A stretch of DNA of 64,000 bases from Raillietiella orientalis (GCA_036172245.1 JAYWIR010000003.1:7316001-7380000); one strand, 5' to 3'. Positions 53,776-58,790 are shown, counted from the first letter of the stretch. The notes: generated by a model from the sequence alone, not told the origin. A program made the numbers and translations.

Positions 53776-55825
53776 TCAGGATTGGATCGACGGAAGCACA
53801 GGTAGCGTGGCGATCCCGCATTGGTTGTTTCTTCCACGGGCCATTTTAATGTAGCCCCCTTCGCCCCATTCTGTGCCCCAGGAATTCTTCACTATCCAGT
53901 ACTCTTCCCCCCTGTCGGACTCTCCGTACCCCACAAGAAGGGCGTTCTGTAGTCCTGCAGTGCCGCAACCCTGATCGTAGTACACACCTGAACAAAGCAA
54001 AACAAGAGGCACCCTGGAAATATTACGCCATAAACGGATTCCTACCTGAGGAGTAAAACCTGAAGGAACTCTGGCTGCCATCGAAAGACACAGAAATCGG
54101 CCCTTTAGAGACAAGAGATTGTTGCAGCGCATTTTCATCCCCTGATGTCAGAAATTGGTACGAGGTAATCCGGACAGCAATGTCGTCCACAGAAACATTG
54201 CAGCGACATTTCTGAAATCATTGCCGACTCTAGCACCACCCTCAGGGTTAACATGCGAGGCACCAACGTAATTTTTGTACGGATAAGACGCTTCCGTGTC
54301 GACACCTTCCAATGAAGCTGCACACTGGAATGCGGAAACGGACAACGCCGGCTGCAAGCAGCTGTCGGCAGCCGAACAGCAGTCGATGATGTTTTGCTCG
54401 CTCAGTGCCACCAATTGCTCATTCTTCAGGCAATAAGCACTTTCCAGAGCACCCACCTAAGGTTTCATCATTTGAGCATAACGCTGCTTCTGAAATGTGC
54501 AAAAATGTTACCGCGCTGAAGGCCCAATCGTAGTTGCAAAATCCTTGGTCCTTCACTGGAACAACGCAATTTTTATCTCTCCAATCGAAGGTCTTTGGAA
54601 CAGGAGCAGAAGATACAGGAATCGGGGACCGGGGAAGAGAGGGAAGAGCTCCTTTCCATTCATTCAGTCCTTTTTCCCACTCCCAGGCTTCCTGGAGAAC
54701 GAAAAGAAGTGCAAACAAATTCGGAGGAGCTTCCGATACTCCTCCGTGAAGCTGAGAGCATTGCTCGCTAAAGGAATCTACATCTCAGAAGCATGAGGAC
54801 AGTTCTGACGGAAAGCACTTGGGACAGGCACTTTCCTGGAGAGGAAGTTGCTAGGAAATAGTGAAGAACGGTGATTTTCTATGGAGCCCAACACCCGAAC
54901 ACCCAAACACTTTCCGTGCGTGGCGATAGAACGAACGGGCAAGCGTGCAGCTCGCCACACTTGCCCAGAAGGCATTCGCGAGAGGATGCAGTTGATGGCA
55001 CTCACCGTGTCGGCGAACCGGTTCAGAGCCATCCTGAAGCTGGTCTCGTTTCTCTCGTACTTTGCGTTGTGTTCCTCCACCATTCGCTTGTTCTTCAGGT
55101 AGACGGAAAGGCGGTGCCTCTCTTCTCCCGTGCTCGCGTACTTCTTGCCGTGCACATGCTGCAAGGGAACGGAGGCAGTGTAAGAAATTTGCAGGTCAAC
55201 GGTGCGTGGTTCATGGGGAAGCAGTCGCCGAAGAGGGAGACATGAAGTCTGCGGAGCTGGTCATGGGGTTGCTTTGGAGCGGACGAGGAGGTGCCAGCTG
55301 TGACCTAGGAAGCCGCAGTACGGGAGCAGCGTGACACCGCACGAAGCGAAACTTTCGTCTGACGCTCGGACTTGTGCACCATGTGGATGGAAGCGGAACA
55401 TGCTCGGAGGCATCAGAGCCACGGTAGCTTCCAGCTGTAAGAAAGCTGCTGGTTGCATGGAAACGGACTGTGCTCGCACGCTGAAGCCATTCGGAATGGT
55501 GGAACTGCATGCACATCGTATGGAGTGTTGCCATGGGAGAGACGTGGATGCGCGTGTAACGTCGAAACTTGATGGCAAGGGAAACACCCACAAGTAAAAA
55601 CCCTGCCACTCCCTTCAGGGCTCGCGATCTGATTCAGCCACAAACTTCCTTTTTTTTTCGTTCTTTTCGATTTAAGCTGCAGCCCAAGGGAATCTGTGGT
55701 TCGCCACGGGGACACGGCGATTCCGACTGGCATCCGGAACTCACCTTGAACTTTGCCCATTCCTGGTTGAGAGGAGTGGCCAATGCAAGCAGCATGTGCA
55801 ACTGAAGAAGCAAAAGGACAAGCAT
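53776..55825 (-). CDS. Cathepsin L-like papain-family (C1A) preproprotein, copy A, 326 aa; catalytic Cys->Asp and His->Gln
   Basis: Six GT-AG exons (minus): 55825-55745, 55158-55006, 54691-54512, 54456-54268, 54211-54046, 53987-53776; 981 nt, intact. Signal peptide, ERFNIN-type I29 propeptide ([27 protein letters not shown]), [69 protein letters not shown]. Confidence 0.95.
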
Positions 55826-56671
55826 CTCGAACTTGTTGAAAGGGAACCCACGTGCACACTGTAGGGCTGCAAGGCGTGCGTGAACTGCACTATATTGAGA
55901 GAGTGGAGTGCTGGTCCCTTCCTGATTGCTTTTTATGGAAAGTCGTTGTATCTACGAGATTGGTCCTTATCTGTTTCTGTTTCGGCGTGTTTCCGATGGG
56001 AAAGTTCTCTGTCATGCTGAAACTCCGGGACGCAGTTCTCACGAGAATCAGTTCCACGAATGGCATCTGTCGGTTTCGCAGATGCTGCACCTCCTTGCAT
56101 TTTTCGTAGCCTTGATTTCGTGATGCGTCTTCACCTTTCGTGGAACTTCAGTCCTTCAGGTCTTCCACCTTCAGTCCTGCACTTTCAAGCAGAACGCCCG
56201 TGCGATAACTTCTCTTAGACCTCGGTTTATTCATTTGCTGGACTCTCAATTGGCTCGCTCTGTTGCACGCTTACTGGCATGTCTTTAGCACCAACTGTAG
56301 TAGCAGTTGACATGAAAATCTTCTCTACGGTTGAGAATTGAGGAAAAAGTACATGCAATAGGGGGTTATAGGGAGGCTCGCAGATAATCACTGAGCATTC
56401 CCAGAAAGGTTCGACAGCAGGCGCCCTGCTTCCGCTAAAGCAGCAGACGCGACTGTTTCGAAATATTGTGTCCTCTTTGCTGCCGCCTCGGCGAATTTAC
56501 TGCGGTGCATCAGCAACGAAACCAACAGGTGCCTTTTCGGGAACAAATTCCCGGAATCCACGCACAACAGTTAAGTCTCCCACAGGAAATACAAACAGAT
56601 AAGGACTAATCTGGGGGTTGCAACAATTTCTTTATATATGTGTCGGTCTGGAGGTTGCAGGGATTCCACTC

Positions 56672-56677
56672 TATATA
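56672..56677 (+). promoter_or_regulatory. TATA-like box upstream of cathepsin-like copy B
   Basis: TATATA about 70 nt upstream of the ATG at 56746; the homologous position in copy A reads CAATATAG. Confidence 0.3.
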
Positions 56678-56745
56678 TCCTGCAGTTCACGCACGCCTTG
56701 CTGGCCCTATAGTGTGCACGTGGGTTCCCTTTCAACAAGATCGAG

Positions 56746-58790
56746 ATGCTTGCCCTTTTGCTTCTTCAGTTGCACATGCTGCTAGCATTGACCACTCCTC
56801 TAAACCAGGAATGGGCAAAGTTCAAGGTAAGTTCCGGATGCCAGTCGGAATCGCCGTGTCCCCGTGGCGAACCGCAGATTCCCTTCGGCTGCAGCTTAAA
56901 TCGAGAAGAACTAGAAGGAAAGAAAGTCGGTGGCTGAATCAGATCGCGAGCCCAGGGGAGAGTGGCAGAGTTTTCACTTGTGGGTGTTTCCTTGCCATCA
57001 AGTTTAGGCGTTAAACGCACATCCACGTCTCTCCCATGGCAACACTCCATCCGATGTGCATGCAGTTCCACCATTCCGAATGGCTTCAGCGTGCGAGCAC
57101 AGTCCGTTTCCATGCAACCAGCAGCTTTCTCCTAGCTGGAAGCTACCGTGGCTCTGATGCCTCCGAGCATGTTCCGCTTCCATCCACATGGTGCACAAGT
57201 CCGAGCGTCAGACGAAAGTTTCGCTTCGTGCGGTGTCACGCTGCTCCCGTACTGCGGCTTCCTAGGTCACAGCTGGCACCACCTCGTCCGCTCCAAAGCA
57301 ACCCCATGACCAGCCACGCAGACTTCATGTCTCCCTCTTCGGCGACTGCTTCCCCATGAACCACGCACCGTTGACCTGCAAATTTCTTACACTGCCTCCG
57401 TTCCCTTGCAGCATGTGCACGGCAAGAAGTACGCGAGCACGGGAGAAGAGAGGCACCGCCTTTCCGTCTACCTGAAGAACAAGCGAATGGTGGAGGAACA
57501 CAACGCAAAGTACGAGAGAAACGAGACCAGCTTCAGGATGGCTCTGAACCGGTTCGCCGACACGGTGAGTGCCAACAACTGCATCCTCTCGCGAATGCCT
57601 TCTGGGCAAGTGTGGCGAGCTGCACCCTGGCCCGTCCGTTCTCTCGCCACGCACGGGAAGTGTTTGGGTGTTCGGGTGTTGGGCTCCATAGAAAATCACC
57701 GTTCTTCACTATTTCCTAGCAACTGCCACTCCAGGAAAGTGCCTGTCCCAAGTGCCCTCCCTCAGACCTGTCCTCATGCTTCTAAGATGCAGATTCCTTT
57801 AGCGAGCAATGCTCTCAGCTTCACGGAAGAGTATCGGAAGCTCCTCCGAATTTGTTTGCACTTCTTTTCGTTCTCCAGGAAGCCTGGGAGTGGAACAGAG
57901 GACTGAATGAATGGAATGGAACGCTTCCCTCTCTTACTCGGGTTCCGATTCATGTATCTTCGAATCCACTTCCGGATAATTTCGATTGGAGAGATAAATA
58001 TTGCGTGACTTCAGTGATGGACCAAGGCTCTTGCAGATATGATTGGGCATTCAGCGCGGTAATATTTCTGCACATTTCAGAAGTAGCGTTCTGCTCAAAT
58101 GACCTTAGGTGGCTGCTCTGGAAGGCGCTTCCTGCGTTCAGAACAGCAGATATATAGAACTGAGCGTTCAAAACATCATCGACTGCTGTTCTGTTTCTGA
58201 CAACTGTATGCTTCCTGCGTTGGCGGTTTCCGCATTCGAGTGTGCAAAATCATTAGGAGGGGTCGACTGGGAATGGTCTTATCCGTACATACATTCTGTT
58301 GGTGGCACCCATATTAAGGCCGCGCACGGAACACGCATTCTGCTTGTATTTTAGAAATCGACTTGCAGATTTTCTCGGGATAATATCGCAGTCTCGGTTT
58401 CTTCCGTGCATTATTTAATAGGGACAGATGAAGAGTTGCTGAAACAAGCTCTGGTGTCCAACGGTCCATTATCTGTTTCTTTCGATGGTAGCCACGACTC
58501 CTTCAGGTTTTACTCTTCAGGTATGATTGCTTATTCGTGGTTTCCCTTTAGCTGTAGAGTCTGTTCCCCTCTTCCCAGGTGTGTACTACGAGGATGGCTG
58601 CGCCCAAGCAGGAGTACACAACGCTCTTCTTGTGGGGTACGGAGTGTCCAAAAAAGGAGAAAAGTACTGGATAGTGAAGAATTCCTGGGGCACACAATGG
58701 GGCGAACAAGGCTACGTCAGAATCGCCCGTGGAAGAAACAACCAATGCGGGATCGCCACTTTGCCGGTGTTCGCATCGATCGGTTCTTGA
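56746..58790 (+). CDS. Cathepsin L-like papain-family (C1A) preproprotein, copy B, 326 aa; catalytic Cys->Asp, His retained
   Basis: Six GT-AG exons: 56746-56826, 57412-57564, 57879-58058, 58109-58297, 58355-58520, 58579-58790; 981 nt, intact, same exon lengths as copy [44 protein letters not shown]. Confidence 0.95.

Follow-up and report, generated by a model that had tools for sequence, protein, structure and literature searches.

The window analysed here, a stretch of 64,000 nucleotides from Raillietiella orientalis (GCA_036172245.1 JAYWIR010000003.1:7316001-7380000), contains a head-to-head pair of cathepsin-L-like genes in which Asp occupies the position of the papain-family nucleophile Cys25. 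The minus-strand gene (53776-55825) carries Asp25 together with Gln159, and the plus-strand gene (56746-58790) Asp25 together with His159. Both gene models were rebuilt from the window sequence, and each gave a spliced translation of 326 codons plus a stop from six exons (plus strand, 56746-56826, 57412-57564, 57879-58058, 58109-58297, 58355-58520 and 58579-58790; minus strand, 55825-55745, 55158-55006, 54691-54512, 54456-54268, 54211-54046 and 53987-53776), with GT..AG at the ends of all ten introns of the two genes together. Exon lengths are equal between the copies, and introns 1, 3 and 4 differ in length. Pfam placed Inhibitor_I29 in exon 2 of the plus copy, the copy scanned (E 4e-14, 53 bits against a cut-off of 24.4), to which exon 2 of the minus copy is nucleotide-identical, and Peptidase_C1 in exons 3, 4 and 6 of each copy (E 5e-6 to 7e-22; 27-79 bits per exon, cut-off 20.7), so that significant matches to profiles PF00112 and PF08246 assign the products to the C1A fold. 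A first, sequence-only reading had proposed intact six-exon, 326-codon frames and a full I29 propeptide for both genes, and the rebuilt models, the Pfam matches and the identity of exon 2 bear this out. Hydrophobicity is strong over the first 16 residues (mean Kyte-Doolittle 2.15 and 2.48 in the two copies), and inspection of the N-terminus suggests that both products are secreted. An AATAAA hexamer 8 nt past the plus-copy stop (58798-58803, plus strand) is a candidate polyadenylation signal. As to the rest of the window, Rfam gave no match in it, and a Pfam search of 377 stop-to-stop ORFs gave only three other genes; these ORFs had a minimum length of 75 aa over 9.9-33.4 kb and 39-64 kb, with the cathepsin locus at 53.8-58.8 kb set aside, and of 110 aa over 1-9.9 kb and 33.4-39 kb. 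A CDKL-type kinase exon (23432-23680) matches animals, trypanosomatids and chytrids alike, at 57-78% identity.

The pair makes up an inverted repeat whose arms, 56665-58781 and 55907-53785, are 87% identical over 2143 nt. A tract homogenised by gene conversion, 56695-57893, matches the minus arm at 1148/1200 positions (95.7%) and runs from the 5' flank through exons 1 and 2 and introns 1 and 2 into exon 3, of which it takes in the first 15 nt. Within it, exon 2 is identical between the copies at 153/153 positions and the introns that flank it at 856/899 (4.8% diverged); by our own arithmetic, an unchanged exon 2 at the intron rate has a probability of about 5e-4. The older, diverged part of the repeat (57894-58788) is identical in 659 of 900 columns (73%). 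Here exons 3, 4 and 6 are about 75-82% identical and exon 5 66%, while introns 4 and 5 are about 62% identical and intron 3 matches at 46/50; introns 4 and 5 are therefore more diverged than exons 3, 4 and 6, and exon 5 is only slightly less diverged than these two introns. Our recount of protein identity in exon 4 gave exactly the 38/63 previously obtained by hand. The 920-nt region between the genes (55826-56745) is common to both and may act as a divergent promoter: inverted arms of 81-82 nt, 89% identical, adjoin each ATG (55826-55907 and 56665-56745) around a unique core of about 757 nt, and each arm contains a TATA-like element, with TATATAT in the plus arm.

In papain the residue immediately before W-A-F is the nucleophile, Cys25. 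Codon 133, at this position, reads GAT in the plus copy (58041-58043) and in the minus copy (54527-54529, minus strand), and a phmmer alignment to cathepsin S sets the Asp under the Cys of ...SCGACWAFSA. Neither copy, then, has the nucleophile of an active C1A cysteine peptidase; the 11-residue motif of each copy, with GAT in place of the catalytic Cys codon, is as the sequence-only reading gave it. Chance is no issue, because the same rare substitution is present in two intact, spliced, domain-complete genes. Since the recent homogenisation of the 5' tract did not extend to the shared GAT, on either side of which synonymous differences occur (58040 and 58049), the Asp most simply appears older than the divergence of the 3' halves (dS about 0.5), which supports, in this form, the earlier proposal that it predates the duplication. 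Because intron 3, which adjoins the motif, is so well conserved, an older gene conversion could instead have spread shared sequence, possibly including the Asp.

The position of His159 was fixed by the invariant H-x5-G-Y-G spacing, which located the His in 170 motifs of database relatives, with a Cys-to-His distance of 6 in 14, as here; automatic aligners place the gap near His159 one residue apart, and the fixed spacing to GYG decides the matter. Codon 270 is accordingly CAC, His, in the plus copy (58617-58619) and CAG, Gln, in the minus copy (53947-53949, minus strand, coordinates by arithmetic from exon 6). Gln19 and Asn175, which serve the oxyanion hole and His orientation, are present in both copies, as is the Trp of NSWG. 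The cleft is otherwise altered. Gly23 is replaced by Arg or Asn and Ser24 by Tyr, so that a Tyr24-Asp25 pair is common to both copies. The Gly65-Gly66 segment holds the substrate backbone in the papain structure; neither copy has this substrate-binding segment of an active C1A peptidase, the two reading C-M-L-P and C-L-Q-P and thus having Leu-Pro and Gln-Pro in its place. After Cys63, C-x-G-G is found in 81/89 relatives, and of the six relatives without a match three (P0006, P0012 and P0118) are also without Cys25. Each of the plus copy's ten cysteines has its counterpart in the minus copy, though the mature domains are only 143/218 identical, and the minus copy carries an odd, eleventh one. 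Canonical cysteines stand at mature positions 22, 56, 63, 97, 156 and 205 in both copies, and extra conserved ones at 12, 39, 57 and 75. In papain numbering the canonical disulfides are 22-63, 56-95 and 153-200; the cysteines for all three are present in both copies and are predicted to pair likewise. Another cysteine as nucleophile was considered and dropped, as Cys22 is a conserved disulfide partner and no other Cys lies near the motif. The His159Gln replacement in the minus copy, the remodelled Gly65-Gly66 segment, the gene-conversion tract and the ten kept cysteines had all been missed in the sequence-only reading.

Outside the homogenised tract, over codons 84-326, dN/dS between the copies is 0.48 (dN 0.24, dS 0.50), a pairwise value, averaged over the two lineages, that is rather high among cathepsins; one copy could recently have become neutral, and the minus copy is the likelier of the two because of Gln159 and its odd eleventh cysteine. 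The bootstrap 95% range is 0.35-0.67, none of 500 replicates reaches 1, and three methods gave 0.42-0.48. When 176 random substitutions were placed in 729 nt, the frame stayed open in 2/5000 trials, and at most 147/243 residues were identical compared with 160/243 observed. A dN/dS of 0.48 argues for maintained genes over pseudogenes, as had been proposed when this comparison was named as a check, its outcome over the diverged part being not near 1. The pair combines a C1A fold, loss of a catalytic residue and purifying selection, and so qualifies as a probable pair of pseudoproteases. It might still be supposed that one or both copies are young, non-functional relics, duplicates of cathepsin L in the course of decay after loss of the nucleophile, with frames left open by luck or patched by conversion. 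The selection is relaxed by comparison with typical housekeeping enzymes, the pair lies on a long branch, the minus copy has lost His159 too and has an unpaired eleventh cysteine, and gene conversion has demonstrably been active at the locus. However, we consider this unlikely, given that both frames are open across a dS of about 0.5, an outcome so rare in the random trials, that no bootstrap replicate reaches neutrality, that every splice site is intact and exon lengths have stayed equal while introns 1, 3 and 4 gained or lost bases, that 10/10 cysteines are kept, and that exon 2 is unchanged between introns of the same tract that have diverged.

Asp at position 25 had been regarded as unusual, a claim that database comparison weakens. 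Among 89 full-length relatives found via exon 6, the Cys25 column contains C 83, S 3, G 2 and D 1, and an exon 3 profile returned six further Asp25 sequences among its best 150, so that in these small samples Asp is about as common as Ser or Gly. The tabulation of residue 25 and the homologue search that had been suggested thus brought to light seven distinct unnamed Asp25 C1A sequences in public protein sets, none closely related, but none of these has Tyr24. A word-indexed search with exon 3 for longer proteins gave five candidates, none significant; with exon 6 it gave 381 matches, the best at 69% identity over the exon, whose full-length identity is at most about 40%, and no close relative was found among them. 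Back-translated exon-3 peptides gave 69 pattern matches in metagenomes, none of them confirmed; one metagenome locus matching the degenerate pattern C-x-Y-D-W-A-F-S-A, in which Ser was coded as AGY only, was rejected as a chance match with no other C1 similarity. A search of the ESM Atlas with P0102 returned generic cathepsin clusters only. We found no paper on an Asp25 C1A family in the open full-text literature searched, and the passages of PMC10318531 consulted do not treat the Asp25 point.

The order of putative signal peptide, I29 prodomain with ERFNIN-type helix and C1 domain is that of active cathepsins L, S and K (MEROPS C1A). Cathepsin L-like proteins, mostly metazoan where a source is named, show about 40% full-length identity to the pair, and its best solved-structure matches are cathepsins S and K. 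Like the active cathepsins, the pair keeps Gln19, Asn175, the NSWG Trp and the canonical cysteines; unlike them, it has Asp25 in both copies, Gln159 in one, Arg/Asn-Tyr for Gly23-Ser24, Leu-Pro or Gln-Pro for Gly65-Gly66, four extra conserved cysteines and a long branch. In a tree of 117 sequences the pair has a stem branch of 1.2 substitutions per site, a length to be expected once catalysis had been lost; the grouping there of the pair with the degenerate sequences P0116, P0006 and P0012 ('testin-2-like' of sponge), with local support of 0.80, may be long-branch attraction because of these branch lengths. Silicatein, testin, Plasmodium SERA5, soybean P34 and scabies-mite SMIPP-C are C1A non-peptidase homologues with Ser, Gly or another residue at position 25. 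The pair resembles them in having kept the papain fold and lost the nucleophile in a gene under selection, and they too are often secreted and often belong to duplicated families; the pair differs in having Asp, preceded by Tyr, and is no closer to them in sequence than to ordinary cathepsin L. Silicatein and 'cathsilicatein' chains are among the PDB matches of exon 6, but silicatein combines Ser at position 25 with a retained His and Asn, whereas Asp stands for Ser in both copies here and the minus copy is also without the His.

The unnamed Asp25 homologues comprise P0102/P0390 (340 aa, Logan contigs), P0305 (390 aa) and the fragments P0263, P0267, P0334, P0339 and P0340. They share with the pair an Asp immediately preceding W-A-F, the motif Q-x-x-C-x-x-[D]-W-A-F being normal in other respects, and three genomic fragments appear to pass into an intron directly behind WAFS-x, where intron 3 lies in the pair. 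P0102 keeps His159 and Asn175 and its near-identical cluster mate P0390 keeps the His, whereas P0305 is without His at H-x5-G. In contrast to the pair, they have S-D or A-D and never Tyr24, and P0102 and P0339 keep C-x-G-G and P0305 C-K-G-G. Their full-length identity to the pair is 33-38%, no higher than that of active cathepsins, and the 117-sequence tree contains no supported clade common to them and the pair. Taken together, these differences indicate that their Asp is probably of independent origin from that of the pair. The I29-type free inhibitors CTLA-2, Drosophila crammer and Bombyx BCPI, which figure in an excerpt of PMC4089206, share with the pair an I29 prodomain that can inhibit cathepsin L, the most conserved exon of the pair being that of its prodomain; they consist of the prodomain alone, whereas the pair has a full, though presumably dead, mature domain attached.

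We think it probable that the two genes encode selectively maintained, non-proteolytic C1A pseudoproteases. An inverted duplication would have produced the head-to-head pair with its common intergenic region; the promoter-proximal half, encoding signal peptide and I29 prodomain, would later have been homogenised between the copies, and the mature domains would have diverged under moderate purifying selection. The hydrophobic N-terminus would send each product into the secretory or endolysosomal route, where it would fold on its I29 prodomain and form the three canonical disulfides, to which the four extra cysteines could add two. Judging from the active-site residues, the proteins would, for want of a thiolate, neither cleave peptides nor remove their own prodomains, and so would act by binding, as the pro-form or after trimming by other proteases. 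With Gly23, Ser24, Cys25 and Gly65-Gly66 all replaced, the cleft looks rebuilt rather than merely broken. Since His159 seems dispensable, being Gln in one copy, while Tyr24-Asp25 is kept in both, the conserved role of the Asp is more likely contact with a ligand or the prodomain than His-dependent catalysis. Any particular ligand, such as would make the proteins inhibitor decoys or regulators of active cathepsins through the prodomain, can be proposed only tentatively. We give a small chance to a bolder proposal, in which Asp25 is a recurrent, selected route to a new site in papain-fold proteins and not a neutral scar: a carboxylate at the N-terminus of the central helix, with Tyr24 and, in the plus copy, His159, would bind a cationic ligand, a metal or a mineral surface, or carry out non-peptidase chemistry, and the seven unnamed Asp25 sequences would be convergent cases.

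Asp-His pairs act in other hydrolase folds with the carboxylate as nucleophile or general base, and the plus copy, with Asp25, His159 and Asn175, might likewise be a neo-functionalised hydrolase having the minus copy as non-catalytic partner. It retains Gln19 and the NSWG Trp as well, the residue that both copies conserve is Asp and not a small neutral one, and Asp recurs in the unnamed homologues, with His kept in P0102/P0390 of the three full-length ones though not in P0305. Yet the minus copy keeps the Asp without the His, so that the dyad is not the conserved feature; in addition, Gly65-Gly66 is replaced, with Pro at position 66, bulky residues stand for Gly23 and Ser24, and the full-text literature searched offered no precedent, and we regard such an activity as quite improbable. 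We regard an artefact as extremely improbable, whether it lay in the assembly or sequencing of codon 133 or in a gene model that passes over a genuine exon with the Cys. The public reads on the locus, from run X1 (apparently DNA, 5% of words; no RNA run was among the matches), amount to five short contigs, which stop short of codon 133 in both copies. Yet GAT is common to two copies with differing neighbour codons, a change from TGY to GAT takes two substitutions, a tblastn search of the whole window with both proteins gave no further C1-like segment as alternative exon, and canonical GT..AG falls at every boundary, in the same place in both copies, with a translation collinear with C1A relatives.

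Protease relatives without catalytic activity form a class that is recognised but still little understood, and at the nucleophile position most papain-family members described so far have Ser or Gly. Asp25 proves less exceptional than was first thought. The pair offers a clean natural example of it, retained in two paralogues across a dS of about 0.5: the Asp has persisted in both copies and the His has gone from one, so that the fates of the two residues can be told apart, and the prodomain halves have evolved in concert while the mature halves diverged. If the genes are not expressed, the locus is merely one more decaying duplicate. If they are expressed, they would provide a convenient pair for studying the role of a carboxylate at position 25 in the papain fold, and would also be suited to asking whether the prodomain, and not the cleft, is the working part.

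The two head-to-head cathepsin-L-like genes are transcribed divergently, and models rebuilt from the raw sequence give 326 codons and a stop in each copy, with corresponding exons of the same length in both (plus copy, + strand, 56746-56826, 57412-57564, 57879-58058, 58109-58297, 58355-58520 and 58579-58790; minus copy, - strand, 55825-55745, 55158-55006, 54691-54512, 54456-54268, 54211-54046 and 53987-53776) and GT..AG boundaries at 10/10 introns. By Pfam, exon 2 of the plus copy encodes an Inhibitor_I29 domain (E 4e-14), and exon 2 of the minus copy is nucleotide-identical to it; Peptidase_C1 is assigned to exons 3, 4 and 6 in each copy. 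An in-frame stop precedes the first ATG, which starts a 16-residue hydrophobic stretch, by inspection a putative signal peptide. The proteins are identical at 241/326 residues, and a recount of exon 4 returned the same 38/63 identities that had been counted by hand. The replacement of the catalytic Cys by Asp, reported from the sequence alone, is borne out: codon 133 is GAT in both copies, at 58041-58043 and 54529-54527, and in phmmer alignment its Asp falls on the Cys of the cathepsin S C-W-A-F-S-A motif, that is, on Cys25 (papain-style position numbers, here and below, are those we take to correspond).

The genes are arranged as an inverted repeat whose arms, 56665-58781 and 55907-53785, are 87% identical over 2143 nt, and no third C1 segment was found within the window. 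Identity between the arms is sharply two-phased, at 1148/1200 from about 56695 to 57893, a part comprising the 5' flank, exon 1, intron 1, exon 2, intron 2 and the start of exon 3, and at 659/900 from 57894 to the stop. We read the high-identity part as a probable tract of recent gene conversion or homogenization, superimposed on a duplication of greater age. Within it, 43/899 aligned positions of introns 1 and 2 differ, whereas exon 2, the prodomain core, is identical at 153/153, the chance of which at the intron rate is about 5e-4; an unchanged exon between diverged introns therefore argues for purifying selection on the prodomain even since the conversion. Outside it, exons 3, 4 and 6 are 75-82% identical, exon 5 is 66% identical and introns 4 and 5 about 62%. 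Because the recent tract does not reach the GAT codons and synonymous differences lie on either side of them, at 58040 and 58049, the simplest history would make the Asp older than the divergence of the 3' halves. It is also possible that an older, short conversion gave one copy the Asp of the other, as a small island of raised identity from about 58041 to 58130 would be consistent with; this island includes intron 3 (58059-58108, 50 nt, in the plus copy; 54511-54457, 55 nt, in the minus copy), identical at 46/50, which may be a constrained mini-intron or else part of a small older conversion patch beside the Asp codon.

Over codons 84-326, dN/dS between the copies is 0.48 (dN 0.24, dS 0.50), with a bootstrap range of 0.35-0.67 and 0/500 replicates reaching 1, and for the mature domain three estimators agree at 0.42-0.48. 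When the 176 observed differences were scattered randomly over the 729 nt, the frame stayed open in 2/5000 trials, and at most 147/243 residues remained identical, against 160/243 observed. The sequence-only reading had proposed a maintained, non-proteolytic pair, and in this it was largely right, given the intact frames, this dN/dS and the loss of Cys25; the rarity that it attached to the Asp was overstated. That the genes are instead duplicates in the course of decay we regard as unlikely.

The changes to the active site extend to two features that the sequence-only reading had missed. The first is the catalytic His, which in relatives always lies six residues ahead of the G in G-Y-G (170 motifs), its distance from the preceding Cys varying from 6 to 10 (6 in 14/170 motifs). 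By the G-Y-G spacing, position 159 is His (CAC) in the plus copy and Gln (CAG) in the minus copy; automatic aligners move this placement by one residue, and the minus copy lacks the His under any placement. The second is the x-G-G that follows the Cys of mature position 63 in 81/89 relatives, which reads M-L-P and L-Q-P in the two copies. Papain holds its substrate by the backbone at Gly65-Gly66. Gly23 is replaced by Arg or Asn and Ser24 by Tyr, and the substrate cleft thus appears to be remodelled, beyond mere loss of the nucleophile. Positions 23-25 (58035-58043 in the plus copy) read Arg-Tyr-Asp in the plus copy and Asn-Tyr-Asp in the minus copy; in some proteins RYD mimics the adhesion motif RGD, and since the minus copy differs, its occurrence here is probably a coincidence. 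Gln19, Asn175 and the Trp of N-S-W-G are present in both copies, and all 10 cysteines of the plus copy (six canonical, with four extra at mature positions 12, 39, 57 and 75) are conserved in the minus copy, which has an eleventh. On established papain-family enzymology, a protein that lacks the thiolate and has its Gly-Gly wall replaced would be very unlikely to cleave peptide bonds or to activate itself. That the plus copy, which does keep the His, encodes a new Asp-based hydrolase is more doubtful still than decay, as the minus copy retains the Asp without the His; whatever role has conserved the Asp in both copies would thus not be that of an Asp-His dyad, and we judge it more likely that the Asp makes a structural contact or binds a ligand, the prodomain being a possible partner. 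An artefact is the least probable explanation, and a very improbable one.

An exon 3 query found no match in a word-indexed protein set, and an exon 6 query returned 381 C1A proteins, the best 69% identical over the exon. Full-length comparison yields no more than about 40% identity, the proteins matched being cathepsin L-like ones from nematodes, mites, marsupials, bugs and acoels. A stem branch of 1.2 substitutions per site leads to the pair in a maximum-likelihood tree of 117 sequences, in which the pair has no well-supported sister; its grouping with three other degenerate sequences, at 0.80 support, may reflect long-branch attraction. Asp at position 25 had been called unusual, and proved less so. 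Among 89 full-length exon 6 relatives the column holds C 83, S 3, G 2 and D 1, the single D being P0102, a database protein of 340 residues, derived from a Logan contig, in which His159 and Asn175 are retained. A profile built from the two exon 3 peptides, in which Asp is favoured by construction, gave 1218 matches at E <= 1e-3 among 1.84 billion representatives, and Asp precedes W-A-F in 6 of the best 150 of these (P0263, P0267, P0305, P0334, P0339 and P0340). None of these six has Tyr24, and no homologue reading Y-D-W-A-F-S was found in two metagenome scans. Because the other Asp25 sequences lack Tyr24 and the full-length ones among them, at 33-38% identity, are no closer to the window proteins than active cathepsins are, Asp25 appears to have arisen several times and to be already present, unremarked, in public data, the pair probably being a separate lineage. 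No Asp25 C1A family is described in the full-text literature searched, which lies outside MEROPS and subscription journals, nor is one mentioned in the passages of PMC10318531 consulted. Three short Asp25 fragments from genomic contigs (P0263, P0267 and P0334) read past W-A-F-S-x into intron-like residues (V-S...), a hint that unrelated Asp25 lineages have an intron at the phase-0 site that intron 3 occupies in the pair. Other C1A homologues (P0242 and P0350, P0370, P0374) have Tyr (four tandem domains, Vicia villosa protein) or Gly at position 25, and since a change from TGY to GAY takes two steps via Tyr or Gly codons, they may illustrate intermediates.

Pfam searches of 377 stop-to-stop ORFs across the window, with the cathepsin locus (53.8-58.8 kb) left out, recognized only three other genes, all on the + strand: an SLC6/SNF-type sodium:neurotransmitter symporter (PF00209; exons at about 1800-5400, in DNA of 62-67% GC), a CDKL-type protein kinase (about 22440-23900) and a gamma-glutamyltranspeptidase (PF01019; about 34800-39200). 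By the same search, the pair has no recognizable gene as a neighbour within 14 kb. No other stretch of the window is as AT-rich as the one that holds the kinase (GC 0.385 at 22-24 kb), and the best database identities of the kinase exon, 57-78%, show no preference among animals, trypanosomatids and chytrids. At 50330-50532, 3.2 kb from the 3' end of the minus gene, lies a 41-nt tandem repeat (5.0 copies, 96% matches). In X1, a public sequencing run with short contigs matching the window, one contig of 151 nt matches exon 6 of the plus copy (58572-58719) with 20 differences; among the 12 differences listed, 4/10 affected codons give the minus-copy residue, and the His159 codon is kept as CAT. 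It looks like a third family member, whether a paralogue elsewhere or a relative. A second X1 contig is identical to 54282-54423; the contigs of this run cover codon 133 in neither copy.

Taken from the sequence, the account that we consider reasonably probable is that the pair encodes a maintained binding protein which is non-proteolytic and belongs to the secretory or endolysosomal route. The prodomain exon is the most strongly conserved part of the pair, and I29 domains act as inhibitors of cathepsin L; for these reasons we propose that the protein may act as its pro-form, or that the prodomain may itself be the active moiety.
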